The translations under genes were made by a program, and so were the position numbers. From an uncultured Spartobacteria bacterium (lineage in GTDB: Bacteria; Verrucomicrobiota; Verrucomicrobiia; Chthoniobacterales; UBA6821), in NCBI GenBank assembly GCA_903868795.1, contig CAIPWR010000041.1:18540-82539 (forward strand): a stretch of DNA of 64,000 nucleotides, read 5' to 3'. Positions 15,126 through 34,619 of the stretch are shown piece after piece. Numbering within the stretch: the first letter of the stretch is position 1; the number at the start of each line of letters is the position of its first letter. The notes beneath the pieces are model-generated. The model saw only the letters and a list, made by a program, of their open reading frames with translations. It was not told where the DNA came from and did not search any database.

Positions 15126-18100
15126 TTAGAGCTGACTCATAGTCACCGAGGTAAAGTCCGTTCCCAGATTCTTCTCCAGCGTGGAGATCGCCTGCTCGAG
15201 CACGCTGTAGATTTTGGAACGGTCCGACGCATTTCCGAGATCGAGCACTACTGTTGAGGTGAGGCCATTGATGGAGAGGGCGCTCTGGTACGCGCTCTGG
15301 GCCGAGGCTGCAGGGACTGTGCCGTAAACGCCGGTGGAGTTCACATACCCGAGCTTCTGGAAGATGTTCGAGAAGAGTGTCCCTAGCGATCCCATGTTCA
15401 CGGCGACATGGTTCGAGGAGGTTGTCGTGACTGAAAGGTTCGTCGTGCTGGGGGTCGGAATGTTGAAGAGCTGATTGAGATAGCCGCGCACCTGGTAGGG
15501 GTACTGCGCGTAGGAGTCCCCGCCCCAAGCGTTGCTGAACGAGCCCATGGCCGCAACGGTGGCAGTCGTGGCATTCTGGCAGCTCTTGGAGGAGGCGGTC
15601 AGCAGCGGGCCATAATAGCCTTGATTATAGGCTTGGTTCAGCAGGATCTCGAGGGGGCTGTCTGCCAATCCGATGAATTTGCCCAGACTACTGTAAAAGT
15701 AGGGCTGCCACTGGGGTGTCCAGCCATAGGAGGCAGGGCTCCAGGGGGTGCTCAGGCTAGTGCCTCCGATGTATTGGAGCGCCACGTAATCGTTGAAGTG
15801 GAAGTAGGCGCAGAGCATCGGGCCGAAGTAGAGGTCATTGAAGCTCGAGGGTGTGGGCAGGGAGTGCTGATTGGCAGCTCCCGCCATGGTGTAGCCGATG
15901 TTTTTTTGCAGGGCGACGTAGTTAATGAGCGAGAAGCCGGCGGGTGCGTAGGATCCACCCACCATGTCGGCTGCATAGTTGTTAATTTGGTAGGGGCCGC
16001 CCTGACCGGCCCCCATGACCGCAGCCTGGAGGGGTGAGGGGGCCAGCTGGGTGCTTCCCTTGGTATAGTATTGGGAGGCGATGTTTTCCTGCAGGAGCTG
16101 GCCGAGGAGTGATCCGTAGAGGTAGTCCTTGCTGAAGAGGATCCCAGGGGTCGCCTTCTGGATCAGATGGCCGTACATCACTCCCGCCGTGAGGTTGGAG
16201 AGAATCAGGTCTGTGTAGGTGTCGCCATCAAGAGTCATCGTGTCCTGGGGTGAGGTCGGGCTGACTCCGTAGTAGTAGTGGAAACCTAGCGAGCCCGACG
16301 TGATGACGCTTCCCGAGGAGGGTGCGGGTGTAGGCGTCGGGCTGCTGGTGGGTGAAGGGGTAGGTGTCGCCGTGGGTGATGGAACGGGGGTTGGGGAGGC
16401 GGATGGGGTTTGCGTAGGGCTGGGCGAGGGTGAAGGAATCGGGGTCGCTGTTCCCGATCCGAAGAGGGTCACTGCTGCCGAGGCGATGGTCGAGGGGACG
16501 GCGGAGCTGACGCTGGCGCCGGTGGGTCCGGTCAGGGCGATCGGTGTGGTCAGGAGCAGATCCCAGACCATGAGACCATCCTTTGGGTTGACTCCATTGG
16601 CCAGAACATGAGCGGCATTGCGCTGAACGGAGTAAGGGGCGTTCAATACCTTGCCGTACTGGTCGAGTTGGATCACGGTTCCGGCCTGATAGGCGTCGGC
16701 GTTGTTCACCACAAGGATTGCACCTCCCCAAGCCTCGTTCGGAATTTCTAATCCGATGGAGACGGCGGTCGTCGCGGGCAGGAGCGCACGGTACTCATCG
16801 TAGGCGACGGTCGGGTCGTAGTGCTGATAGCCGGCGTCATACGACATGATGTTCACGGCGTCGGGAAGCGCTCCGACTGTGCGGCCCGCGTAGGCACCGG
16901 TCGTGATGGTGCTGGCAAAGGTGAGGCGTTCCCTTCCGGCTGAGCCACCCCAGTAGGAGATCTGGTTGGCATTGGTGGGATTATGAACCGCTGCCGTGTA
17001 GTCGGCGCCCGTGGACCAGGCAGCCACGGCTAGCTGACGTGCGCGTCCATCGGCGCTGTTTGCCTGATCGATGGCCTCTCTCATCGCCTGAATCGCCTGA
17101 GCGTAGTTCGAGACAGTCACGGAATCAGCCCCGTTCACCTCGTAGTCCACATCCAATCCGTCGATCTTCAGGTCGACCATGATCTGGGCAAGGGCGGTGC
17201 GAATCGGCGTGGTTGAGGCGCCGGCTGTTTTGCCGGCTTCGGCGGCCAGTCCGGCCCAGTTTCCATAAGTCGCGCCACCTACCGAGAGCAGGACACGCTG
17301 TCCGGCTTGATGGAGGAGTCGGATTGCCTGGGCTACATCCTGGGGCGCCGAAGAGAACTGGATGCCCGTGCCCGTCCATGTGTTGGCAGCGATGCCGGAC
17401 CAGCTGAAGTTCGGTTGGGCGAAGGCAATGCAGATGTCAGTGTAGGGAGTCTGACTGATGGCGGCGAGTTTGCTGGCGGCGATTAATTGCGCATCGGTCA
17501 TTGGGGTGCCGCTATAGCCGGCGTAGTAGTAGTATGGGTCCGACCAGCTGGGGAAATAGCCTGTGAGGTGTCGGGCCGAGAGTCCACTTCCGGAGGATGA
17601 GGGAGTAGGAGTTGGTGTGGCAACGGGGGTCGGCACCGGTGTGGCGCTGGGGCTTGGCACGGGGGTGGCCGTTGGCGAGGGAGTCGGTGTCGGGGTTGCC
17701 GTGGGAGTAGCGCTAGGAGTAGCATTAGGCGTAGGCGATGGTGTCGGGGTTGGAGTGGGGGAGGCTGCCGGTACTGCAACCGAGAGAGGAATGGATGTCC
17801 CGTTGACAACAAGTCTTGAGGGTTTTGCGGGCGGAGCTCCATTGAAGGTGAATCCTACCGAGACGGAGCCGCCTGCCGGGATCGAGGCGTTCCACGAGGC
17901 TGGAATGATTTGATACCCGCCAGTTACCGAGGAACTGGTCGCATTCCAGATGGAGGCGACTGTATCAGCGTCCGAGAGGGCAGCGCTCCAGCTTGCGAGG
18001 GCGGATGTGCCCACATTGTTGATGATCAGATTGGCGTTGTATCCGGTATCCCATACGGAGGTCACTTGAAAGAGGCCTGTCAGCGCCGTAATTCCAGGCG

Positions 18101-18671
18101 TAGGACTGGGCGTAGCCGTGGGGACCGGTGTTGGTGTGGGCGTTGCCGTCGGTTTCGGAGTCGCCGTTGGCGAGGGAGTTGGCGTGGCGGTCGGGGAGGG
18201 TTTGGGTGTCGCCGTAGGCACCGGGGTTGGCGAAGGGGTCGGAGTGGGTGTTGCTCCGGGAAGTAGGAACGAAAGAGGCACGCTGGTGCCGTTGAAGGTT
18301 AATTTGGAGGGTTTGGTCGGATTAGTGGCGATTGCATTGAGCTGAAGTCCGATCGTCACCGATCCCTTGGCGGGAATTGTGGCGGTCCAAGATGCCGGAA
18401 GGATGGAGTATCCACCCGAGATCGAACTGGCCGTTCCATTCCAGGCGCTCGTGACTTGATCAGGAGTGGAGAGATTGGCGTTCCAGTTGGTGAGGCCTGC
18501 GGTGCCGGAATTTGCGAGGACGAGGTTGGCGATGTAACCGCCGCTCCATGTCGAGGTGACCTGGAAGGATCCGGTGACGGCTGCCTGGGCCGGAGGGATG
18601 GCCAGCATGGCGGCAGCAAGAAAGGCAAGGAGGTGTGTTTTCATGGTATTTTTACTTTGATAGTTAGTCAT
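15126..18671 (-). CDS. secreted multidomain chitinase: signal peptide - CBM2 - PT linker - CBM2 - PT linker - GH18 - PT linker - unknown lysozyme-like C-terminal domain
   Basis: The start is set at MTNYQ (18671), preceded by GGGGGAG; MKTHLL (18644) is an alternative. Signal peptide ...AIPPAQA. Two CBM2-type modules lie at about nt 18581-18264 and 18092-17772 (W.GGY.AN...WN...P.SW...IP..GS). GH18 catalytic motif DGLDVDYE (E codon at 17139-17141). There are three Pro/Thr linkers. The C-terminal ~395 aa (16316-15129) has GGPYQIN and AYNQG motifs. Confidence 0.85.
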   Translation of the reverse strand: MTNYQSKNTMKTHLLAFLAAAMLAIPPAQAAVTGSFQVTSTWSGGYIANLVLANSGTAGLTNWNANLSTPDQVTSAWNGTASSISGGYSILPASWTATIPAKGSVTIGLQLNAIATNPTKPSKLTFNGTSVPLSFLLPGATPTPTPSPTPVPTATPKPSPTATPTPSPTATPKPTATPTPTPVPTATPSPTPGITALTGLFQVTSVWDTGYNANLIINNVGTSALASWSAALSDADTVASIWNATSSSVTGGYQIIPASWNASIPAGGSVSVGFTFNGAPPAKPSRLVVNGTSIPLSVAVPAASPTPTPTPSPTPNATPSATPTATPTPTPSPTATPVPSPSATPVPTPVATPTPTPSSSGSGLSARHLTGYFPSWSDPYYYYAGYSGTPMTDAQLIAASKLAAISQTPYTDICIAFAQPNFSWSGIAANTWTGTGIQFSSAPQDVAQAIRLLHQAGQRVLLSVGGATYGNWAGLAAEAGKTAGASTTPIRTALAQIMVDLKIDGLDVDYEVNGADSVTVSNYAQAIQAMREAIDQANSADGRARQLAVAAWSTGADYTAAVHNPTNANQISYWGGSAGRERLTFASTITTGAYAGRTVGALPDAVNIMSYDAGYQHYDPTVAYDEYRALLPATTAVSIGLEIPNEAWGGAILVVNNADAYQAGTVIQLDQYGKVLNAPYSVQRNAAHVLANGVNPKDGLMVWDLLLTTPIALTGPTGASVSSAVPSTIASAAVTLFGSGTATPIPSPSPSPTQTPSASPTPVPSPTATPTPSPTSSPTPTPAPSSGSVITSGSLGFHYYYGVSPTSPQDTMTLDGDTYTDLILSNLTAGVMYGHLIQKATPGILFSKDYLYGSLLGQLLQENIASQYYTKGSTQLAPSPLQAAVMGAGQGGPYQINNYAADMVGGSYAPAGFSLINYVALQKNIGYTMAGAANQHSLPTPSSFNDLYFGPMLCAYFHFNDYVALQYIGGTSLSTPWSPASYGWTPQWQPYFYSSLGKFIGLADSPLEILLNQAYNQGYYGPLLTASSKSCQNATTATVAAMGSFSNAWGGDSYAQYPYQVRGYLNQLFNIPTPSTTNLSVTTTSSNHVAVNMGSLGTLFSNIFQKLGYVNSTGVYGTVPAASAQSAYQSALSINGLTSTVVLDLGNASDRSKIYSVLEQAISTLEKNLGTDFTSVTMSQL

Positions 18672-18725: not shown

Positions 18726-18754
18726 TTGACCACAAGCGGACTCAGGTTGATATT
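18726..18754 (+). promoter_or_regulatory. candidate sigma70-type promoter for the SAM-riboswitch leader
   Basis: TTGACC (18726-18731), a 17-nt spacer, then GATATT (18749-18754). This places a start about 7 nt downstream, at the 5' edge of the aptamer. Confidence 0.45.
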
Positions 18755-18763
18755 CGGCGCTCA

Positions 18764-18878
18764 ATCTTATCAAGAGTGACGGAGGGACTGGCCCGCTGAT
18801 GTCACGGCAACCGCTGCGAGGCTTCTCGTAGGCCCAGGTGCCAAATCCAGCTCCGAGCATTCGGGGAAAAGATGAGAT
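18764..18878 (+). promoter_or_regulatory. SAM-I (S-box) riboswitch aptamer
   Basis: AUCUUAUCAAGAG-UGAC-GGAGGGACUGGCCC-GCUGAUGUCAC-GGCAACC...GGUGCCAAAUCCAGC...AAAAGAUGAGAU. P1 pairs 18764-18771 with 18871-18878. P2 is GUGAC/GUCAC. All core conserved blocks of the S-box are present. Confidence 0.9.
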
Positions 18879-18961
18879 ACTTGGCAGAGTCGATGGTCCC
18901 CAGGGATCCGGCACCAGGTCTCCTCGGCACTCTTGATGGGAACACAACCGACCGAGATCCC

Positions 18962-20218
18962 ATGTCCAAGAAACCTTTTTTCAATAATCTGAAATGCCGT
19001 GAATGCGGACGACTCTACGAGAAAGAGGCGATCCACATCTGTGAATTCGATTTTGGCCCGCTCGAGGCTGCCTACGACTACGATGCAATCCGCAGCGTCC
19101 TCACCCGCGAGCTGATCGAGTCCCGCCCCCAGACGATGTGGCGCTATCGCGAGTTGCTCCCGATCGACGGTGAGCCGACCGTAGGCACTCAGGTGGGCTT
19201 TACACCGCTAGTGAAGGCCGACCGCTTGGCCAAGGCCCTCGGCATCCGCGAGCTCTGGATCAAGAACGACTCGGTCAATTACCCCACGCTCTCCTTCAAG
19301 GACCGTGTGGTTTCCGTGGCGCTAAGCCGCGCCCGCGAGCTCGGATTCGAGGTGGTCGCCTGCGCCTCCACCGGCAATCTGGCGAACTCCGTCGCCGCCA
19401 ACGCCGCCAATGCGGGACTCAAGAGCTATGTCCTGATCCCCTCCAACCTCGAGCAGGGTAAGGTGCTCGGCTCCCTCGTCTACGGCACCAATGTCATCGG
19501 GATCAAGGGCCCCTACGATCAGGTGAACCGTCTCTGCTCGGAGATTGCCGGCAAGTACGGCTGGGGCTTCGTGAATGTGAATCTTCGCCCATACTATGCG
19601 GAGGGTTCCAAGACCATGGGCTTCGAGATTGCCGAGCAGCTCGGATGGAAACTCCCGCGCCACACCGTGGCCTGCATGGCCTCCGGATCGCTGCTGACCA
19701 AGATTCACAAGGCCTACAAGGAATTCATTGATCTCGGGATCGTCGAGCAGAGTGATTTCACGATTCATGGTGCTCAGGCCTCCGGGTGCTCTCCGATCAG
19801 TACTGCCTTCAAGGCGGGCAGCGAGATGGTCAAGCCCGTTCAAAACCCTGACACCATCGCCAAATCACTTGCGATCGGAACGCCGGCCGATGGTTACTAC
19901 GCCATCCGCAGCATGAAGGAGACGGGCGGTAGCTGTGAGGACTGCAGTGATGAGGAGATCGTCGAGGGGATCAAACTCCTGGCCGAGACGACCGGCATTT
20001 TTGCCGAGACGGCCGGCGGCGTTACCGTGGCCTGCGCCAAGAAACTCATTGAGACAGGTAAAATTCCCAAGGATGAGAGCGCCGTCCTCTGCATCACCGG
20101 CCATGGTCTCAAGACCCAGGAGGCGATCATCGGCAAGGTCGGCGAGCCCCGTGTCATCGGTGCGAGCCTGCGTGAATTCGAAGCCCTGGTCGCCGACGAG
20201 GTCAACGTCAAATCCTGA
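18962..20218 (+). CDS. threonine-synthase-family PLP enzyme (second paralog; MetM-like candidate homocysteine synthase)
   Basis: 418 aa from MSKKPFF. N-terminal zinc-ribbon-like KCRECG...HICEF. PLP-lysine motif YPTLSFKDRV. Tryptophan-synthase-beta-like fold. The ORF-track start at 18872 would fall inside the riboswitch. Confidence 0.85.
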   Translation: MSKKPFFNNLKCRECGRLYEKEAIHICEFDFGPLEAAYDYDAIRSVLTRELIESRPQTMWRYRELLPIDGEPTVGTQVGFTPLVKADRLAKALGIRELWIKNDSVNYPTLSFKDRVVSVALSRARELGFEVVACASTGNLANSVAANAANAGLKSYVLIPSNLEQGKVLGSLVYGTNVIGIKGPYDQVNRLCSEIAGKYGWGFVNVNLRPYYAEGSKTMGFEIAEQLGWKLPRHTVACMASGSLLTKIHKAYKEFIDLGIVEQSDFTIHGAQASGCSPISTAFKAGSEMVKPVQNPDTIAKSLAIGTPADGYYAIRSMKETGGSCEDCSDEEIVEGIKLLAETTGIFAETAGGVTVACAKKLIETGKIPKDESAVLCITGHGLKTQEAIIGKVGEPRVIGASLREFEALVADEVNVKS

Positions 20219-20268
20219 CATCCTCAGACCCCTATAACCTATCACCCCAACCCTATCCCCTAATCCCC

Positions 20269-20541
20269 ATGCCCACCGTCCGCATCCCAACCCCGCTTCG
20301 TAAACTCACCAACAATCATGAGGAGGTCGTTGCCTCCGGCGCCACCCTCGGCGCCGTTCTTGATGAGCTCAATGCTACCTTCCCCGGTCTCGGCGAGCGC
20401 ATCGTCGACGAGAACGGCGTGATCCGCCGTTTCGTGAACATCTTCGTGAACGACGAGGATGTGCGGTTCCTGCAGGAGAAGGAGACCCCAATCAAGGAGG
20501 CCGACGTGATCTCCATTGTTCCAGCAATCGCCGGAGGCTAG
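20269..20541 (+). CDS. MoaD/ThiS-family ubiquitin-like sulfur carrier protein
   Basis: 90 aa with a beta-grasp-type sequence that ends ...ISIVPAIAGG (C-terminal Gly-Gly immediately before the stop). Confidence 0.85.
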   Translation: MPTVRIPTPLRKLTNNHEEVVASGATLGAVLDELNATFPGLGERIVDENGVIRRFVNIFVNDEDVRFLQEKETPIKEADVISIVPAIAGG

Positions 20542-20559
20542 GGTCCCTACACGCCCCGC

Positions 20560-20838
20560 TTGCCCAACAAGAGAAAAGAACCGATCATAGAAATCATGGA
20601 AACGACACGCCTCTGGCTCATGTATCCGGCGAAGCTCATCACTCGCCCCATCGTCTATGAACTCGGACACAAGTTCTCCGTGACGACAAATGTCCGCCAA
20701 GCAAGCGTGACCAATGAGATCGGCCTCGTCTGCCTCGAGCTCATCGGAGAGCGCGGCGAAATCAAGCGGTCTATCGCCTGGCTGGAGGAGCTTGGAGTCA
20801 AGGTCGAACCGGTTGAGATCAACACCATCGAAGGCTAA
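20560..20838 (+). CDS. stand-alone NIL-domain protein
   Basis: The pattern RLWLMYPAKLITRPIVYELGHKFSVTTNVRQASVTNEIGLVCLELIGERGEIKRSIAWLEELGVKVEPVE matches the NIL-domain pattern known from the MetN C-terminus. The start may be METT at 20596. Confidence 0.75.
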   Translation: MPNKRKEPIIEIMETTRLWLMYPAKLITRPIVYELGHKFSVTTNVRQASVTNEIGLVCLELIGERGEIKRSIAWLEELGVKVEPVEINTIEG

Positions 20839-21347: not shown

Positions 21348-22580
21348 CTATTTGACCGCCACAATCACTGCGGTTGCATTGTCTTTGCCTGAGGAGGTCG
21401 TGGCTTCTGACGCAAGATGTTGGGCAGGTGTGATGGCTTTGGGGCATCCCTTCAAAATCTCGGCGATTCTTTGATCCGAGAGTCCGTCGGTAATGCCGTC
21501 CGAGCAGATAAGAAAACGATCGCCGGATGAGCAGGAGATCTCTCCGACCTGCGGGTTCACGAACTGATTGCCTGCGCCAAGCGCTTTTTGGAGACGGTTT
21601 TTAGCAGGATGCATGCGCGCCTCTAGCTCGCTGATCTGACCGGTGCGTCGAAGCCATCCGACATGGGTGTCGTCGTCGGTGAGTTGGGTGATTTTGCCAT
21701 CCTTGGACAGATGGTAGATCCGGGTATCTCCGATGTGGGCGAAGTGCATCATCTCTTCCGAGAACCAGCAGAGGCTTAAGGTCGAGCCCATGCCGTGGCA
21801 CTCCTCGTAGCTGTCGCCCAGATACTGGAGGGCCTTATGAATCTCGGCAAAGAGGGTTTCGAACGCCGCCCCGTAGCTGATCGGCGTTCCCACGGCGCGA
21901 TGGCGGATGAGGGGAGGGATCATTCGGGTGATTTTTTCGACGGTGATCCGGCTGGCGAATTCCCCTGCATTCGCGCCGCCCATTCCGTCGCTGACCGCGA
22001 AGATTAAATCGGCTTCATTCGATGACTCCCCGACTTTTCCGAGATGACGCACATCCTCCTCATGGATCGCCAATCCGACGAAGGAGTCCTCATTGTTGCC
22101 ACGCGACGGGCCTTTGTCCGAGCAACCTGACCAAGAAATCGAGAGGGATTTAGCCGGTGATCGCGGTACGGTTGGCTTGGTCTCCGGTTTACTCGTGGAC
22201 TTGAGAGAATCCAGCACCGTGGCAAATTCGAAGTCGATCAAGCAGAAGCGCCCGTCCTGCTGTCGATAGGTGACATTACGCAGTTCCGGATCATCGTGAC
22301 GGACGCCGTAATGTTCTAGCTCGTCAAAGAGTTCCTTGCAGCGTTGCGGATCAAGCTGATCAACACGGGAGCCGCAGTTCGTGGTCACGAGCAGGAGTTT
22401 CTCAGGATCCGCAGAGATCACGCGGGGGACGAAGGGGCACCCGGTTTTTTCCAAGTGGCGAAGCACATGCAGCTCGTTGTCAAAGCGCTCCTGCGCCTTG
22501 GGACCGTGAAAATGTTTACGCACGCTCCCGTCGAAGCAAACCTGGACTGTGGCGCGCTGGGTGTCCTTGACGGTGAGCAT
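21348..22580 (-). CDS. fusion of a minimal protein-kinase-like domain and a PP2C-family Ser/Thr phosphatase
   Basis: The N-terminal ~125 aa carry VRKHF (beta3 Lys), FDNELHVLRHL (alphaC Glu), HDDPELRNV (HxD....N catalytic loop) and IDFEFA (DFG-like). The C-terminal half has PP2C motifs GNNEDSF, VSDGMGG, ICSDGITDGL, GKDNATAVIV. Confidence 0.8.
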   Translation of the reverse strand: MLTVKDTQRATVQVCFDGSVRKHFHGPKAQERFDNELHVLRHLEKTGCPFVPRVISADPEKLLLVTTNCGSRVDQLDPQRCKELFDELEHYGVRHDDPELRNVTYRQQDGRFCLIDFEFATVLDSLKSTSKPETKPTVPRSPAKSLSISWSGCSDKGPSRGNNEDSFVGLAIHEEDVRHLGKVGESSNEADLIFAVSDGMGGANAGEFASRITVEKITRMIPPLIRHRAVGTPISYGAAFETLFAEIHKALQYLGDSYEECHGMGSTLSLCWFSEEMMHFAHIGDTRIYHLSKDGKITQLTDDDTHVGWLRRTGQISELEARMHPAKNRLQKALGAGNQFVNPQVGEISCSSGDRFLICSDGITDGLSDQRIAEILKGCPKAITPAQHLASEATTSSGKDNATAVIVAVK

Positions 22581-22770: not shown

Positions 22771-22881
22771 TGATCCTTTTGTGCCCGATCCTAAAGTCGG
22801 GATATCACCCACCGTCGGTAGTCCGCAACGCGAAGGGTGATCAAAAAAAGACACCGGACACACCACAACCACCCCAATCAC

Positions 22882-23904
22882 ATGGCGAAGTACAAACTCG
22901 AATACATCTGGCTCGACGGTTACGAGCCGGTTCCCAACCTCCGCAGCAAGACCACGATCAAGGAGTTCTCCAAGGCTCCCACGCTGAAGGATCTCCCGAT
23001 GTGGGGTTTCGACGGTAGTTCGACCCGACAGGCCGAGGGTAAGAGCAGCGATTGTCTCCTCAAGCCCGTCGCCAGCTACGTCGACCCGACCCGCGAGAAC
23101 GGTTATCTCGTCATGTGCGAGGTACTCATGCCCGATGGCAAGCCGCATCCCTCAAATTCCCGCGCCACGATTCTCGACGACCCTGACACTTGGTTCGGAT
23201 TCGAGCAGGAGTATTTCCTTTATAAGGATGGCGCACCTCTTGGCTTCCCCAAGGGCGGCTTCCCCACCGAAGGGCAGGGCAGGTTCTACTGCGGAGTCGG
23301 CTTCAACGCAGTCGGTGATATTGCCCGCGACATCGTCGAGGAGCACCTTGATATCTGCCTCGAGATGGGAATCAACCATGAGGGTATCAATGCCGAGGTG
23401 GCCAAGGGTCAGTGGGAATTCCAGATCTTCGGCAAGGGCTCCAAGAAGGCCGCCGACGAAATCTGGCTCGCCCGCTATATTCTCATGCGCGTCTGCGAGA
23501 AGTACGGCGTCGACGTTGAGTTCCACTGCAAGCCGCTTGGCAAGGATGTTGACTGGAACGGCTCCGGAATGCACTGCAACTTCTCGACCAAGTTCATGCG
23601 CGAGAAGGGTGGCAAAAAGTACTTCGAGAAGCTCATGGCGGCATTCGACAAGTTCAAGGACGAGCACATCGCCGTCTACGGACCAGACAATCACTTCCGC
23701 CTCACTGGTCTCCACGAGACTCAGTCGATCGATAAGTTCAGCTATGGAGTTGCCGATCGAGGCGCTTCGATCCGCGTCCCTCACAGCTTCGTGAACAACG
23801 AGTACAAGGGCTATCTCGAGGATCGTCGTCCGAATTCCCAGGGCGATCCGTACAAGATCGCCAGCCGCGTTCTTCAGACCATCAAGACTGTTCCGCTCAA
23901 GTAA
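22882..23904 (+). CDS. glnII: glutamine synthetase type II (eukaryote-like GSII)
   Basis: MAKYKLEYIWLDGYEPVPNLRSKT...WGFDGSSTRQAEG...GINAEVAKGQWEFQIFG...DWNGSGMHCNFST...YGVADRGASIRVP...EDRRPNSQGDPY. It is near-colinear with rhizobial GlnII as I remember it. Confidence 0.92.
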   Translation: MAKYKLEYIWLDGYEPVPNLRSKTTIKEFSKAPTLKDLPMWGFDGSSTRQAEGKSSDCLLKPVASYVDPTRENGYLVMCEVLMPDGKPHPSNSRATILDDPDTWFGFEQEYFLYKDGAPLGFPKGGFPTEGQGRFYCGVGFNAVGDIARDIVEEHLDICLEMGINHEGINAEVAKGQWEFQIFGKGSKKAADEIWLARYILMRVCEKYGVDVEFHCKPLGKDVDWNGSGMHCNFSTKFMREKGGKKYFEKLMAAFDKFKDEHIAVYGPDNHFRLTGLHETQSIDKFSYGVADRGASIRVPHSFVNNEYKGYLEDRRPNSQGDPYKIASRVLQTIKTVPLK

Positions 23905-25500: not shown

Positions 25501-26004
25501 ATGCGTCATCGTAAAAAAACCGTCAAACTCGGCCGCAGTCAGGCACACCGTGATTCGCTTCTCGCGAACCAAGTCTGCAGCCTCATCGAGCACCGCCGCA
25601 TCAAGACCACCCTCGCCAAAGCCAAGGCTACCAAGCCGCTGGCCGAGCGTATGCTCACTCTGGGCAAACAGGGTGATCTTCACTCCCGCCGCGTTGCGAT
25701 CTCCTACCTGAAACACAAGGACATCGTGAAGAAGCTCTTCACCGAGATCGCTCCTGCCGCCGCCGACCGCAAGGGAGGCTATACCCGCATCGTGAAGCTC
25801 GGAGCCCGTCTCAGCGACAGCGCCCCGATGGCTTACCTCGAGTGGGTTGACTACGCTCCCGTTGCGAAGGAGGAGGTCGTTGCCGAGACTGCTGAAAAGC
25901 CAGCCAAGAAAGCAAAGGCACCTAAGGCCGAGAAAGCCGAAGGCGAAGCTCCTAAAAAGAAGGCCGCTCCTAAGAAAGCTAAGGAAGAGAAGTCCGAGGA
26001 ATAA
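25501..26004 (+). CDS. rplQ: 50S ribosomal protein L17 with a Lys/Ala/Glu-rich C-terminal extension
   Basis: MRHRKKTVKLGRSQAHRDSLLANQ...GGYTRIVKLG core, followed by a ~50-aa tail KPAKKAKAPKAEKAEGEAPKKKAAPKKAKEEKSEE. Confidence 0.93.
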   Translation: MRHRKKTVKLGRSQAHRDSLLANQVCSLIEHRRIKTTLAKAKATKPLAERMLTLGKQGDLHSRRVAISYLKHKDIVKKLFTEIAPAAADRKGGYTRIVKLGARLSDSAPMAYLEWVDYAPVAKEEVVAETAEKPAKKAKAPKAEKAEGEAPKKKAAPKKAKEEKSEE

Positions 26005-30710: not shown

Positions 30711-31928
30711 TCAAGCTGCATCCAATCCGAAGGCGGTGTGGGCCAGCTTGGCCGCATCGGCGATCATCTGCTCGTCAAGGATGACGGCGATCTTGATCTC
30801 GGAGGTCGAGATCATCTGTATGTTGATCCCTCCCTTGGCGAGTGCTTCAAAAAGTTTTGCCGCAACACCCGAGTGGGTCCGCATCCCGATGCCAACAACG
30901 CTGAGTTTAGCGATGCCGTCCATCTTGCTGACTTTACCGGCACCAATCTCGATGGCGACTCGATCAAGGAGGTTGCCGATCTTTTCCAGTTCATCACGGT
31001 TCATGGTGAAGGAGATGTCGGTTGAGCCCGCTGCGGAGACATTCTGAACGATCACGTCGATCATGACGTGAGCATCGGCGAGGGCCGTGAAGAGGCGGGC
31101 TGCGCATCCCGGCTTGTCAGGGACTTGACTCACGGTGACCTTGGCCTGGTTGCGCTCGACGCTGACGCCGCGCACGACGACCTGTTCCATTCCTGCTGAT
31201 TCTTCTTTCACGGTTGTTCCTGGGTTGTTGTTAAAGCTGCTGCGGACCTCGAAGGTGACTCCGAATTTTTTGGCGAACTCGACCGAGCGTGACTGCATCA
31301 CCTTGGAGCCGCTACTCGCCATTTCGAGCATCTCGTCGTAGGAGATCGCCTCGATTTTCCTGGCTGTGGGGACGATGCGCGGATCACAGGTGTAGACGCC
31401 GTCGACATCGGTAAAGATCTGGCAGGCATCGGCTTCTACTGCAGAAGCCAGCGCTATGGCCGTCAGATCAGACCCTCCTCGACCAAGGGTGGTGATATCC
31501 CCCTCGCTGGTCTCCCCTTGGAAGCCGGCCACAATCACGATGGCCCCCTCATCAAGGTGCTTCTTGATCTGGTCTGGCGTCACATTGCTGATCTTGGCCT
31601 TGGTGTGGACTCCGTTGGTGACAATGCCGGCCTGGGCACCCGTGAGTGAAACTGCCTTGCCTCCCAAGCTCTGAATCGCCATGGCTGCCAGGGCCATCGT
31701 GGTCTGCTCGCCGGTTGAGAGCAGGACATCCATCTCTCGTTCCGTGGGATTGGCGGAAACTTCACGGGCAAGTTTGATCAGTGAATCCGTCACCCCCGAC
31801 ATCGCCGAGACAACGGCCACAACTGAATTTCCCGCCCGCTGCGTTTCGAGCAGACGCCGGGCCACATTCATGATGCGCTCGGGATTGCCGACCGAAGTGC
31901 CGCCATATTTCTGAACGATCAGGGACAT
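30711..31928 (-). CDS. lysC: aspartate kinase
   Basis: MSLIVQKYGGTSVG, an amino-acid kinase fold, and C-terminal tandem ACT domains. Confidence 0.93.
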   Translation of the reverse strand: MSLIVQKYGGTSVGNPERIMNVARRLLETQRAGNSVVAVVSAMSGVTDSLIKLAREVSANPTEREMDVLLSTGEQTTMALAAMAIQSLGGKAVSLTGAQAGIVTNGVHTKAKISNVTPDQIKKHLDEGAIVIVAGFQGETSEGDITTLGRGGSDLTAIALASAVEADACQIFTDVDGVYTCDPRIVPTARKIEAISYDEMLEMASSGSKVMQSRSVEFAKKFGVTFEVRSSFNNNPGTTVKEESAGMEQVVVRGVSVERNQAKVTVSQVPDKPGCAARLFTALADAHVMIDVIVQNVSAAGSTDISFTMNRDELEKIGNLLDRVAIEIGAGKVSKMDGIAKLSVVGIGMRTHSGVAAKLFEALAKGGINIQMISTSEIKIAVILDEQMIADAAKLAHTAFGLDAA

Positions 31929-32022
31929 GCTGAGGAGACTTTTGGCGGTTGGGGCTGAAGGTTTTTGGGGCGGACGCTGGATTCCAATGAGGAAATTTCA
32001 ATAACCCGTTTGGTCATCATGA

Positions 32023-33132
32023 TCAGTTACTGATTTTTGCAAGTGCCTCGCGGACGGCCGAGGCGGTGGCATCGGTTTCGATCGGTGCGGTGACGGCGTG
32101 CTTTGCCGTATCGGGATCCTTCAGCCCATGACCGGTGACGGTCAGGACAACTTTGGAGCCGGGCTGAATCTGACGGAAGGGGCAACTGTCGCACCGGGTC
32201 GTCTTTCCGCTACGGTTGAAGCATTTGAAGAGCGCGGCGACGGGAGCGGCGCTGGCTGGTTCCACGAAGATGCCTTCGTTGGAAGCGAGCCACTTCTGGG
32301 CTGCCAGAATTTCGGAATCCTCCACGATCTCGAAGCAGCCACCCGATTCGGAGACGGCTTGAGTCGCGCCATCCCAGCTGGCGGGGCGTCCGATCCGGAT
32401 CGCCGTGGCCACTGTCTCGGGATGATCCATGGGTGCGCCGCGGTAAAGAGGAGCCGCTCCGGCTGCCTGCACTCCCAGCATCCTGGGTAATTTGAAGCTA
32501 CGCCCAAGGTCCTTGAACTCCTTATACCCTTTCCAGTAGGCGGTGATGTTTCCTGCATTGCCAACGGGGAGGATATGGATGTCGGGCGCGTCGCCGAGTT
32601 CCTCGATGATTTCGAACGCCGCGGTCTTCTGACCCTCGATCCTGTAGGGGTTGATCGAATTGACGATTGCGAAGTCACCGGTCTCACCCAACTCACGCAC
32701 GAGTCGCAGGGCGTCGTCGAAATTCCCCCGGATGGCAACGACGGTCGCTCCGTAGATGTAGGCCTGCACCATCTTGCCACCCGCGATACGTCCTGCAGGA
32801 AGAAGGACGGCGCATTTCATCCCGGCACGGGCGGCATAGGCAGCGGCGGCGGCCGAGGTATTCCCCGTGGAGGCGCACAGGACTGTATGGGCACCCTCCT
32901 CGGCGGCCTTGGAGATCGCCATGGTCATGCCGCGATCCTTGAACGAGCCGGTTGGATTCAGCCCCTCGTACTTTACATAGACCTCACCGCCGGTGATGGC
33001 GCTCAGCTTGGGAGAGTGGATCAGTGGAGTGGATCCTTCGCTTAGGGAAATGACCGGTGTGGCATCGGTGACGGGAAGAAACTCGCGGTAGCGTGCGATC
33101 ACGCCACAATCATTGAAGGTCTTTTTCATCAA
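32023..33132 (-). CDS. thrC: threonine synthase (canonical paralog)
   Basis: PLP-lysine motif [12 protein letters not shown] and C-terminal TGHGLKDPD. It sits between hom and lysC. Confidence 0.9.
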
Positions 33133-33147
33133 ATTCAGATCTGGAAA

Positions 33148-34440
33148 TTAGGAAAAGGATTCCACATTGAAGAGTACGGGATCTCCCTTCACGCAGTTGA
33201 GAGCTGAGATCTCAGCAAGGGCGGCACACATCACTCCATAGGCTGCCTCGTGGATCATCAGCACTAAGGGAGTCTCCACGCCTGCGATCGATTCCGGCTG
33301 TACTACCGAGGAGATGCCGATGCCAGCTGCTCCAAGAACGCCCGCAATGCGGGCCAGAACACCCGGCTTGTCATCCACGGAAAGTCGCAAGTAATAGGAG
33401 CCGACGATTTCTGCAGCTGGACGGCTGCTGCCATAGAGGCTGTGGGATGCAAAGCCGTAGGTCTGGCGCGGGGCATCCAGCACATGGGCCGCCTCGACGA
33501 GATCACCGATGACCGAAGTGGAAGTGGGGCCGCGACCCGCGCCGCGTCCGTAGAAGAGACTATCGCCGACGAGATCACCCCGGACAGCAACGGCATTAAA
33601 AACGCCATTCACCGAGGCCAGGACATTGCCGAGGGGAATGAGCGTGGGAGCCACGCCGACCTCGACCTTGCCGCTAATCTCGCGGATCGAGCCGAGAAGC
33701 TTGATGCAGTAGCCGAGACTCTTGGCGAAATGAATATCGGCCGCACTAACGCTATCGATTCCCTCGACGCGAATCGAGGCGTGATCAACCCAGAAGCCGT
33801 AGGCGAGGGCGGCCAAGATGATCGCCTTGTGGCCGGCATCCCATCCGTTGATATCGAGCGTGGGATCGGCCTCGGCATAGCCAAGTTGCACGGCCTCGGC
33901 AAGGGCCTCGGGGTAGTCGAGGCCTGCTTCCTGCATCCGGGTCAGGATGTAGTTGCTCGTGCCGTTGAGGATGCCGTGGACCGACTCGATGCGGTTGCCG
34001 ACGAAGGCATCGCGGAGCGACTGGATAATCGGAATGCCGCCGGCGACCGCCGCCTCGAAGAAGACGGGAACCTTGCACTCGCTTGCGAGGGCAAAAATCT
34101 CCGCGCCGCGCTCGGCGAGTAGGGCCTTGTTGCCTGTGACAACGATACGGCCCGACCTGATCGCGGCAACCGTAAGGTCAAAGGCCTCTGTGGTGCCGCC
34201 GATGAGTTCGACGACCACTTTGATCTCAGGATCTTCGAGGAGATCTTGCCAGCGGTTGGAAAAGAGTGCGGCGGGTGCCGCAATATCGCGCGTTTTTTTT
34301 GGATCTCGCACAACGATCCGACGGACATCAAAAGAGTATCCGGAGCGCTCCGCGATCAGGTCACGGTGACGTTCAAGATTTTCATAGACCCCGGCACCCA
34401 CGGTGCCGAAGCCGGCTAGTCCGATGCCGATAGTCTTCAT
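33148..34440 (-). CDS. hom: homoserine dehydrogenase
   Basis: The start is set at MKTIGIGLAGFGTVG (Rossmann motif); the ORF extends to 34512. It has a catalytic domain and a C-terminal ACT domain. Confidence 0.9.
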   Translation of the reverse strand: MKTIGIGLAGFGTVGAGVYENLERHRDLIAERSGYSFDVRRIVVRDPKKTRDIAAPAALFSNRWQDLLEDPEIKVVVELIGGTTEAFDLTVAAIRSGRIVVTGNKALLAERGAEIFALASECKVPVFFEAAVAGGIPIIQSLRDAFVGNRIESVHGILNGTSNYILTRMQEAGLDYPEALAEAVQLGYAEADPTLDINGWDAGHKAIILAALAYGFWVDHASIRVEGIDSVSAADIHFAKSLGYCIKLLGSIREISGKVEVGVAPTLIPLGNVLASVNGVFNAVAVRGDLVGDSLFYGRGAGRGPTSTSVIGDLVEAAHVLDAPRQTYGFASHSLYGSSRPAAEIVGSYYLRLSVDDKPGVLARIAGVLGAAGIGISSVVQPESIAGVETPLVLMIHEAAYGVMCAALAEISALNCVKGDPVLFNVESFS

Positions 34441-34619
34441 AAAGCAGCTCAGGATCTTCTCTCTTGAATCGGCCGAGGTAAAGCCGGTTTTGCCTCGGCC
34501 AAAGTCCTTCACCAGGAGTTGGGGTTTCAGGGTGCTTCCTCTATACTCACACGGCTACCCATGGTAGGGTTAATCAATGTCTTTGTTCAGATCGGAAGTG
34601 GCGATCTCCAACACCTTGA

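Follow-up and report, generated by a model that had tools for sequence, protein, structure and literature searches.

Predicted SAM-repressed MetM/MetO-type operon in an uncultured Spartobacteria bacterium, and the association of its sulfur carrier with a stand-alone NIL-domain protein

In Streptomyces albulus, homocysteine is formed by an enzyme related to threonine synthase. According to the papers that cite the original report (Hasebe et al. 2024, AEM 90:e01247-24; via PMC12172450 and bioRxiv 10.1101/2024.10.14.618325), the ThrC homologue MetM converts O-phospho-L-homoserine to homocysteine using the thiocarboxylated carrier protein MetO. The same citing papers describe Mec and MoeZ as helpers, and a riboswitch for S-adenosylmethionine (SAM) 5′ of metM. 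The GapMind 2026 preprint gives the steps of the route as MetO, Mec, MoeZ and MetM, and states that MetM is frequently misannotated as threonine synthase. Another protein-thiocarboxylate route to homocysteine is that of Wolinella succinogenes, comprising HcyS, HcyD, HcyF and MetY (Krishnamoorthy and Begley 2011, as cited in PMC5764234). Here we analyze 64 kb of DNA from an uncultured Spartobacteria bacterium of the Verrucomicrobiota (GenBank assembly GCA_903868795.1, contig CAIPWR010000041.1), termed the window below, in which a SAM-I riboswitch precedes genes for a MetM-like enzyme, a MetO-like carrier and a stand-alone NIL-domain protein. Its best protein matches put the window within the Verrucomicrobiota, close to Chthoniobacterales/Terrimicrobium. 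Taken as a whole, the locus is likely to be a SAM-repressed operon for MetM/MetO-type, protein-thiocarboxylate-dependent homocysteine synthesis in which the NIL protein is a partner of the carrier. The metM–metO pair belongs to a route that is already known, found here in the Verrucomicrobiota; the new element is the linkage with NIL. Our functional statements rest on homology, gene order, gene fusion, modelling and published work on relatives, and in total 160 related loci were gathered.

The aptamer scores 79.8 bits (E 3.7e-17) against Rfam RF00162, for which the gathering score is 44.4, and 119.5 bits with R1, our own SAM-I covariance model built from 19 aptamers. It is the sole riboswitch detected by an Rfam scan of the window, and it ends 83 nt 5′ of the metM-like gene on the same strand, which is the 5′ leader position of a methionine gene. 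This is an ordinary SAM-I riboswitch, for which SAM binding and repression are predicted. The metM-like gene encodes a pyridoxal phosphate (PLP) enzyme of the ThrC family (Pfam PALP, E 5.4e-68). After 50 nt there follows the gene for a carrier of the ThiS/MoaD/CysO type, whose C-terminus AIAGG directly precedes the stop codon and whose nearest solved relative is CysO of Mycobacterium tuberculosis (3dwg_C, E 1.4e-21). The third gene encodes the NIL protein. An alternative TTG start for the latter at 20560, 18 nt past the carrier stop, would give 92 aa. There are >2000 homologues of this protein, and the best 120 of these, at 75–99% identity, are mostly 80–82 aa long and begin at the equivalent of the ATG at 20596; this start is therefore the likelier, and the 92-aa reading is probably too long. 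A sequence-only reading of this DNA had proposed an S-box aptamer ∼85 nt 5′ of a 418-aa ThrC-family open reading frame (ORF) with the motif TLSFKDR and an N-terminal cysteine segment, a 90-aa carrier 50 nt downstream, a stand-alone NIL protein, and a separate canonical thrC in a hom-thrC-lysC operon. All of these are borne out by the profile searches, the operon at 30711–34512 on the minus strand and the NIL protein in its shorter form. Its reference to a Streptomyces route in which a ThrC-like MetM acts with MetO was also correct, as judged from the papers citing Hasebe et al. 2024, and its proposal of a carrier-dependent homocysteine module is supported as far as computation allows.

What kind of enzyme is the MetM-like protein? 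It reaches 278.8 bits with the NCBIfam thrC model TIGR00260 (cutoff 167.1), falls under the cutoff of PRK08197, a threonine synthase model with an N-terminal extension (286.5 versus 303 bits), and is far from the CysM model TIGR01138 (38.9 bits, cutoff 394). It aligns with solved ThrC structures at E 1e-45 to 1e-55, and public records annotate it as threonine synthase. Within TLSFKDR, the motif of the Schiff-base lysine, K113, D114 and R115 are invariant among homologues, as are C12, C15 and C27 of the N-terminal CxxC...C segment. This zinc-ribbon-like segment is entirely missing from canonical ThrC. In the window (18995–19051, residues 12–30) it takes the form CxxC...CxxC with the fourth cysteine replaced by aspartate, CEFDFGP where CEYCFGP is found elsewhere; Terrimicrobium likewise has the aspartate. 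Identity with the window's own ThrC is 36%, and with 80 homologues from species genomes it is 58–82%; these come from Verrucomicrobiota, Kiritimatiellae, Planctomycetota, Thermodesulfobacteriota, Nitrospirota, Nitrospinota, Omnitrophota and Cyanobacteria. The cyanobacterial homologues lie at 59–62% (61% for L077 of Microcystis and 59% for L086 and L088). A Micromonosporaceae homologue (P0247) is 50% identical. A homologue search from an actinobacterial seed returned Micromonosporaceae alone, and in Micromonospora coriariae (P0473), of the same group, a SAM-I riboswitch and MetM are present with neither MetO nor NIL adjoining.

In a neighbour-joining tree, bootstrapped with 100 replicates of a numpy implementation, the canonical ThrC of the window joins the other canonical ThrC proteins in a clade that excludes the MetM-like protein (94/100), in agreement with the sequence-only expectation that the latter would not nest among true threonine synthases. 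The MetM-like protein groups with homologues linked to MetO or a SAM riboswitch from cyanobacteria, actinobacteria, Nitrospirota and others, and the exact clade as drawn has a bootstrap of 50/100. The canonical hom-thrC-lysC operon lies 10 kb from the riboswitch operon. As the window thus supplies a canonical thrC, threonine synthesis does not depend on the paralogue under riboswitch control. Some MetM/ThrC-like proteins carry further domains: P0305 is fused to ThiF (E1), P0348 and P0350 to a LeuA allosteric/dimerization domain, and P0352 and P0361 to a PadR DNA-binding domain.

How widespread is the arrangement? We collected 80 MetM-like loci from species genomes, of which 35 are of cyanobacterial type and 45 are not. 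A MetO-like gene lies 3′ of the MetM-like gene in 77 of the 80. With the covariance model, SAM-I riboswitches are found directly 5′ of the MetM-like gene in 27 of these loci, in at least four phyla; they belong to nearly all of the Verrucomicrobiota, and in addition to Kiritimatiellae, to Brocadiaceae, to five Planctomycetota and to a number of Thermodesulfobacteriota-like genomes. Further examples precede MetM-like genes in Micromonospora and in 34 metagenome loci gathered with the NIL protein as seed. The same model finds no SAM-I in the cyanobacterial and Nitrospirota loci of the genome set, and in four loci a gene for an Rrf2 regulator replaces the riboswitch position. ThiF adjoins in 16 related loci, and neighbours in other phyla include ThiF, a prokaryotic JAB protease, TusA, a DsrE-like protein, a CysM-like enzyme, a sulfite-reductase-like protein and a cysteine desulfurase. 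Three Nitrospirota loci without a riboswitch (L048, L052 and L087; e.g. L087:148-6032) carry metM-metO-NIL-thrC and, next in order, a gene of the phosphoglycerate mutase family, to which the alternative homoserine kinase HomK belongs, and an aspartate kinase gene. This combination fits phosphohomoserine as the common substrate. The string amounts to a compact cluster at the branch point between threonine and homocysteine. Among the Verrucomicrobiota, L025, L027 and L030 have two tandem MetO-like genes between metM and NIL, ending in AIAGG and in AFAGG or SIAGG. Genes of ∼148 aa lacking a Pfam match occur at two further places: after metO in Terrimicrobium (L005:7633-8079), and separating metM from metO in a Methylacidiphilales metagenome-assembled genome (MAG; L017:1461-1910).

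The association of NIL with MetO is strong, extends across phyla and is backed by domain fusion, and it is not universal. Among the 45 non-cyanobacterial loci, 30 have NIL near to or fused with MetO, in Verrucomicrobiota, Nitrospirota, Thermodesulfobacteriota, Planctomycetia and Omnitrophota; of the 15 that lack it, two have contig ends too near for a verdict. In 21 loci a separate NIL gene directly follows MetO (14 of Verrucomicrobiota type, six Nitrospirota and one unclassified), and in one Terrimicrobiaceae locus NIL lies 2.4 kb upstream on the opposite strand. We also assembled 80 metagenome loci with NIL proteins at least 68% identical to that of the window. The scan used the narrower alignment A6, the cross-phylum alignment A5 being too diverse, so that it samples mainly Verrucomicrobia-like NIL. 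Enough upstream sequence is available for 62 of these loci, and MetO lies directly upstream in 46 of them, joined by MetM and the riboswitch where the contig extends.

In the remaining eight genome loci MetO and NIL form a single ORF, typically of ∼171 aa. The hosts are Syntrophaceae and Thermodesulfobacteriota, a Planctomycetia MAG, Acidulodesulfobacterium and a relative, an unclassified bacterium and an Omnitrophota MAG. The layout comprises MetO (residues 1–91, ending ...IIPAIAGG), a basic linker of 4–25 residues and then NIL, so that the Gly-Gly destined for the thiocarboxylate lies internally. A JAMM/Prok-JAB gene is present in seven of the eight fused loci, the contig of the eighth ending early, compared with two of the 72 others, both Nitrospirota. 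ThiF also adjoins in fused loci, and JAMM and ThiF are usually a few genes away. In the window MetO and NIL share a reading frame, and readthrough of the stop codon was considered as a link between the two; it was rejected because a common frame is kept in only about half of the loci with separate genes. Searches of the searchable literature gave no account of NIL as a recurrent operon member, of a MetO-GG-NIL fusion or of the co-occurrence of fusion and JAMM; Hasebe et al. 2024, known to us through citing papers, might mention NIL.

The NIL protein scores 39.9 bits with Pfam NIL (PF09383; cutoff 24). Its AlphaFold2 model (mean predicted local distance difference test score 85.6) has the beta-alpha-beta-beta-alpha-beta, ferredoxin-like fold, and the top 11 matches from a Foldseek search of the PDB are all C2/NIL domains of MetN, with TM scores of 0.76–0.79 (E. 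coli MetN) and a root mean square deviation of 1.6–2.1 Å. The L-methionine of E. coli MetN is bound across the dimer of C2 domains with a hydrogen bond to N295, binding is lost in an N295A mutant, and A299 belongs to the interface strand whose register shifts (PMC6233128). N295 and A299 align with N32 and A36 of the window's NIL protein, which are both invariant in the close family, with the motif T-N-[VI]-R-Q-A-S-V; across phyla the motif is TN[IV]R.A, and N32 is at least 90% conserved. R34 is invariant in this subfamily where MetN has isoleucine, so that the ligand of NIL may differ from methionine. The four-residue hairpin insertion of MetN is missing. The MetN model TIGR02314 matches over model residues 273–338 alone (16.6 bits, cutoff 499.7), so that the protein is not the appendage of a MetN ATPase; it has one cysteine and no Fer4 match, and is thus not of the NIL/ferredoxin type, after which several public annotations name stand-alone NIL homologues. 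The MoaD-related 1v8c of Thermus thermophilus was considered as a solved MetO-NIL and is not supported, since the alignment stops just past the GG and the structure is not in the top 50 fold matches. 1v8c (168 aa) has an internal ...PPVAGG that is followed by a further domain.

Table 1. Coordinates of the features discussed. Window positions count from its first nucleotide; fusion ORFs are given by locus
Feature	Position	Strand	Basis or remark
Promoter-like site TTGACC-17 nt spacer-GATATT	18726..18754	+	Consensus scan; 10 nt 5′ of aptamer
SAM-I (S-box) riboswitch aptamer	18764..18878	+	Rfam RF00162, full model, 1-108 of 108
Anti-aptamer element CCAGGUCUCCUCGGCACUCUUGAUGGGA	18914..18943	+	Complement of aptamer 5′ half, 18765-18791
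Translation initiation region CCGACCGAGAUCCC-AUG	18948..18964	+	Sequestration expected once the aptamer has formed
metM-like gene, ThrC-family PLP enzyme, 418 aa	18962..20218	+	Pfam PALP, NCBIfam TIGR00260
metO-like gene, ThiS/MoaD/CysO-type carrier, 90 aa	20269..20541	+	Pfam ThiS, E 3.7e-18
Stand-alone NIL-domain protein, 80 aa	20596..20838	+	Pfam NIL, E 3.8e-10
lysC	30711-31928	-	Canonical hom-thrC-lysC operon
Canonical thrC	32023..33132	-	TIGR00260, 331.8 bits
hom	33148-34512	-	Canonical hom-thrC-lysC operon
MetO-NIL fusion ORF	L034:9282-9797
MetO-NIL fusion ORF	L035:9269-9784
MetO-NIL fusion ORF	L036:3020-3535
MetO-NIL fusion ORF	L040:6334-6906
MetO-NIL fusion ORF	L044:3326-3856
MetO-NIL fusion ORF	L045:9285-9800
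MetO-NIL fusion ORF	L047:6336-6851
MetO-NIL fusion ORF	L060:3041-3475

The leader contains an expression platform that competes with the folding of the aptamer, and the anti-aptamer helix on which this rests is well supported. In the unconstrained minimum free energy fold, the 5′ half of the aptamer (18765–18791) pairs with 18914–18941 to form a helix of 25 bp. Over 25 related leaders 85.5% of the cells in this helix pair, compared with 39–54% when the partner columns are slid, and none of 500 shuffles matches the observed value; as the helix was defined on the window itself, the comparison is tilted somewhat in its favour. Compensatory changes are seen, one position being AU in 16 leaders, GC in six and CG in one, such that A or G in the aptamer is met by U or C in the element. 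In relatives without a U-run, a complement matching at 12–14 of 14 positions is located 8–27 nt 5′ of the AUG. The element includes a pyrimidine-rich stretch that is a candidate anti-Shine–Dalgarno sequence. When the aptamer is enforced in the fold, 18948–18959 pairs with 18917–18927 and 18963–18970 with 18880–18886; the pyrimidine-rich stretch of the element, released from the aptamer, is thereby paired with CCGACCGAGAUCC directly 5′ of the AUG. Between aptamer and start codon the window has no hairpin with a U-run that could serve as an intrinsic terminator, and transcription attenuation is therefore rejected at this locus. The riboswitch appears to be a translational OFF switch, with the sequestration of the Shine–Dalgarno (SD) region taken from the modelled fold. 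RNAalifold applied to the short expression platform gave no consensus. Terminators are clear in relatives from several other orders; SAM-I leaders with a hairpin and U-run are found in L020, L022–L028, L030, L033, L035, L045 and L047, and the clade of the window has the terminator-less platform of anti-aptamer and start site (18879–18961 in the window). The promoter-like site is weak evidence of a promoter, as the scan gave a single site where chance alone would give 1.0.

These elements can be assembled into a provisional scheme. In the absence of SAM the 5′ half of the aptamer would pair with the anti-aptamer element, leaving the start region open; when SAM is present the aptamer would fold, freeing the element to sequester the SD/AUG region, and control would thus be translational. 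An E1-like enzyme encoded elsewhere is expected, by analogy with S. albulus and M. tuberculosis, to adenylate the C-terminal Gly-Gly of MetO on the way to the thiocarboxylate. By the same analogy, MetM would use O-phosphohomoserine, the substrate it has in common with canonical ThrC, and the sulfur of the carrier to generate homocysteine. In the other phyla the MetO-GG-NIL precursor is most likely cut after the GG by the co-encoded JAMM protease, which would yield carrier and NIL in equal amounts. Overall, NIL would most likely hold a small amino-acid-like ligand at a dimer interface and work with the carrier. We favour NIL dimers whose ligand is an amino acid resembling methionine or homocysteine and which adjust or aid the carrier step, so that NIL would be an accessory or feedback subunit rather than a catalytic one.

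Several observations weigh against this reading. The sequence connection with S. albulus MetM is indirect, passing through the Microcystis homologue, which is 61% identical to the window protein and for whose family PMC12172450 gives an identity of 51.6% with S. albulus MetM. That homologue adjoins a metO-like gene, yet it showed threonine deaminase activity in vitro, did not raise methionine and had no clear MetM function in vivo (PMC12172450), so that homocysteine activity is not to be assumed for every family member. No relatives of ThiF/E1, JAMM, HomK, TusA, Rrf2 or CysM are found within the 64 kb; the remaining genome, where E1, JAMM, homoserine kinase and other homocysteine routes would be expected, lies outside the analysis. 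Pfam scans of ∼30 further genes in the window reveal no more methionine genes. The SD-sequestering helix is weakly conserved, with 65% of cells pairing compared with 29–49% in the slid controls. NIL is found in none of the 35 cyanobacterial-type loci (within 8 kb), is absent at the Micromonospora locus and is not among the steps listed in the GapMind 2026 preprint. Of the 62 NIL-seeded loci 16 have neither MetO nor MetM, with unrelated neighbours and no riboswitch. The conserved asparagine is a feature of the whole NIL family, and is no sign of methionine binding by itself. Finally, locus counts are phylogenetically non-independent, so that the Fisher p-value of 9e-8 for the coincidence of fusion and JAMM overstates the support. 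The co-occurrence of three genes proposed in the sequence-only reading thus holds for MetM and MetO, and for NIL in two-thirds of the non-cyanobacterial loci; it fails in the cyanobacterial loci and for the roughly one-quarter of NIL genes that are detached. NIL is accordingly a conserved third partner in several phyla, and not in the whole family.

What these points leave is a graded conclusion. That the operon serves the MetM/MetO homocysteine route under SAM control is very probable. That NIL is functionally tied to MetO, for which gene order, gene fusion and fold are the grounds, is rather less secure and still probable. That NIL is specifically a ligand-sensing regulator is a tentative suggestion. 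Its absence from cyanobacterial and actinobacterial loci, and from the listed steps of the characterized pathway, favours an accessory or regulatory role.

A different role for NIL has a comparable, and equally limited, claim. NIL could be an obligatory subunit for sulfur relay or docking that binds the tail of MetO, its thiocarboxylate or a MetO–homocysteine adduct and passes it to MetM, E1 or JAMM, in the manner of MoaE with MoaD or ThiG with ThiS. Fusions between sulfur carriers and the proteins they work with, ThiS-ThiG and MoaD-MoaE, are on record (PMC1779556), and NIL is likewise fused precisely at the GG end; for MoaD-MoaE, cleavage of such a fusion by a JAMM protease of Deinococcus has been reported (PMC8832034). 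In the unrelated DUF39 pathway of homocysteine synthesis, the one other homocysteine context of NIL, a NIL/ferredoxin protein (MA1822, DvMF_0262) is genetically required (PMC5764234). The invariant R34 specific to the subfamily suggests an anionic ligand, a carboxylate, thiocarboxylate or phosphate, and with the fusion at the GG end it keeps a direct role in sulfur hand-off alive; the extreme conservation of NIL points the same way. Set against this, the loci and listed pathway that lack NIL mean that it is not universally required, and the detached genes are free of riboswitch control. We consider an obligatory relay possible, and hold it with no great conviction.

Could NIL be simply a frequent neighbour? 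On this explanation it would be an independent small protein, methionine-binding and regulatory or else unrelated, whose adjacency reflects lineage history. The 16 detached loci speak for it: a search beside them for methionine genes of the MetH or MetE type found none, the neighbours being a TPR protein, a type II secretion system ATPase, an MscS channel and rpiB. In Terrimicrobium SAM-I, metM and metO are together in one place, and a NIL gene 77% identical to that of the window lies elsewhere behind the MscS channel gene. In the metagenome locus L101 (5989–6786) a NIL 91% identical to the window's is followed by rpiB, as in the window, with no metM–metO upstream; here NIL seems to have parted from the operon recently. 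Moreover, the close relatives of the window are syntenic across the whole region, so that these loci do not count as independent support. Yet MetO-NIL fusions are found in at least three distant lineages, the order MetM-MetO-NIL is kept amid differing neighbourhoods in Verrucomicrobiota, Nitrospirota and an unclassified bacterium, and each riboswitch in the NIL-seeded loci precedes a metM-metO-NIL string. Mere adjacency is thus unlikely. That the ThrC-like gene encodes a second threonine synthase, or an enzyme degrading threonine or phosphohomoserine, is very improbable: its score with the thrC model, its public annotation and the deaminase activity of the Microcystis homologue would agree with this, but the gene is controlled by a SAM riboswitch and not by a threonine-responsive signal, a GG-terminated carrier gene follows it in nearly all loci, a canonical thrC is nearby, the protein lies outside the canonical ThrC clade, and MetM proteins are often misannotated in just this way.

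Returning to a ligand-responsive accessory subunit, the fullest form of our proposal is that NIL is a true third component of MetM/MetO synthesis in many lineages outside the cyanobacteria and actinobacteria, either as a separate protein or as a pro-protein split by JAMM, coupling the charging or discharge of the carrier to the level of a methionine- or homocysteine-like ligand. In this form it is speculative. If true, the processing of a bacterial ubiquitin-like precursor would free a metabolite-sensing regulator, and there would be a shared, testable function for the NIL domain of the archaeal and Desulfovibrio DUF39 pathway. The first description of the MetM/MetO route dates from as late as 2024, and the enzyme is still widely annotated as threonine synthase. 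Its wide distribution in Verrucomicrobiota, Planctomycetota, Nitrospirota, Thermodesulfobacteriota and Cyanobacteria matters for the prediction of methionine prototrophy from genomes. The link between NIL and the carrier, through gene order, co-regulation and a gene fusion that co-occurs with JAMM, offers a small soluble system for finding the function of NIL, and the MetO-NIL fusion is a new type of partner among the few bacterial fusions of ubiquitin-like carriers.

Some other genes of the window may be noted. The rpiB gene starts 10 nt past NIL; in close relatives a protease gene intervenes, and rpiB is therefore placed outside the unit. Divergent from the riboswitch is a gene for a very large secreted protein (15126–18665, minus strand) with a signal peptide, two repeated modules of ∼100 aa and long linkers rich in Pro, Thr and Ser; the mechanical call of this ORF crosses the riboswitch, and the true start is probably near 18665. 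Positions 21348–22580 (minus strand) encode a weakly matching aminoglycoside-phosphotransferase-like kinase N-terminus joined to a PP2C phosphatase domain, 22837–23904 (plus strand) a GlnII-type, eukaryote-like glutamine synthetase (372 bits, under the NCBIfam cutoff of 500), and 25501–26004 (plus strand) ribosomal protein L17 with a C-terminal extension resembling a 'sunset domain variant'.

Comparison with the described systems places the locus closest to that of Streptomyces. As far as the citing descriptions of the latter go, both combine a ThrC-homologous PLP enzyme, a carrier of the ThiS/MoaD type and an upstream SAM riboswitch. The window differs in belonging to the Verrucomicrobiota, in lacking the E1 (MoeZ) and Mec genes within its bounds, in a carrier that already ends in GG and so needs no trimming, and in a NIL gene within the operon; such a gene goes unmentioned in the accessible accounts of the Streptomyces system. 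The CysO/CysM/Mec+/MoeZ system of M. tuberculosis follows the same logic, in which a thiocarboxylated carrier gives its sulfur to a fold-type II PLP enzyme whose substrate is an O-phospho amino acid. The window carrier is closest to CysO, and related loci also hold JAMM, ThiF and a CysM-like enzyme; in contrast to CysM, the PLP enzyme here is ThrC-like, its predicted product is homocysteine and it is under riboswitch control. In the HcyS system of Wolinella a JAMM protease exposes the GG of the carrier. The PLP enzyme there is an O-acetylhomoserine sulfhydrylase of another fold with an acyl-homoserine substrate, whereas that of the window is PALP/ThrC-like with no Cys_Met_Meta_PP match.

The NIL protein has its own set of relatives. 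It shares the fold and the aligned asparagine and alanine of the MetN C2 domain, yet it stands alone rather than on an ABC ATPase. As in the DUF39 system, a NIL domain is found in a pathway that inserts sulfur to form homocysteine; here it lacks ferredoxin domains, its partners are a ubiquitin-like carrier and a ThrC-like enzyme, and the predicted substrate is phosphohomoserine rather than aspartate semialdehyde. The MetO-NIL fusions of related loci resemble MoaD-MoaE and ThiS-ThiG in that a ubiquitin-like carrier is joined through its GG end with a JAMM gene nearby, but the fused partner is a NIL domain, of which the window has the split form.

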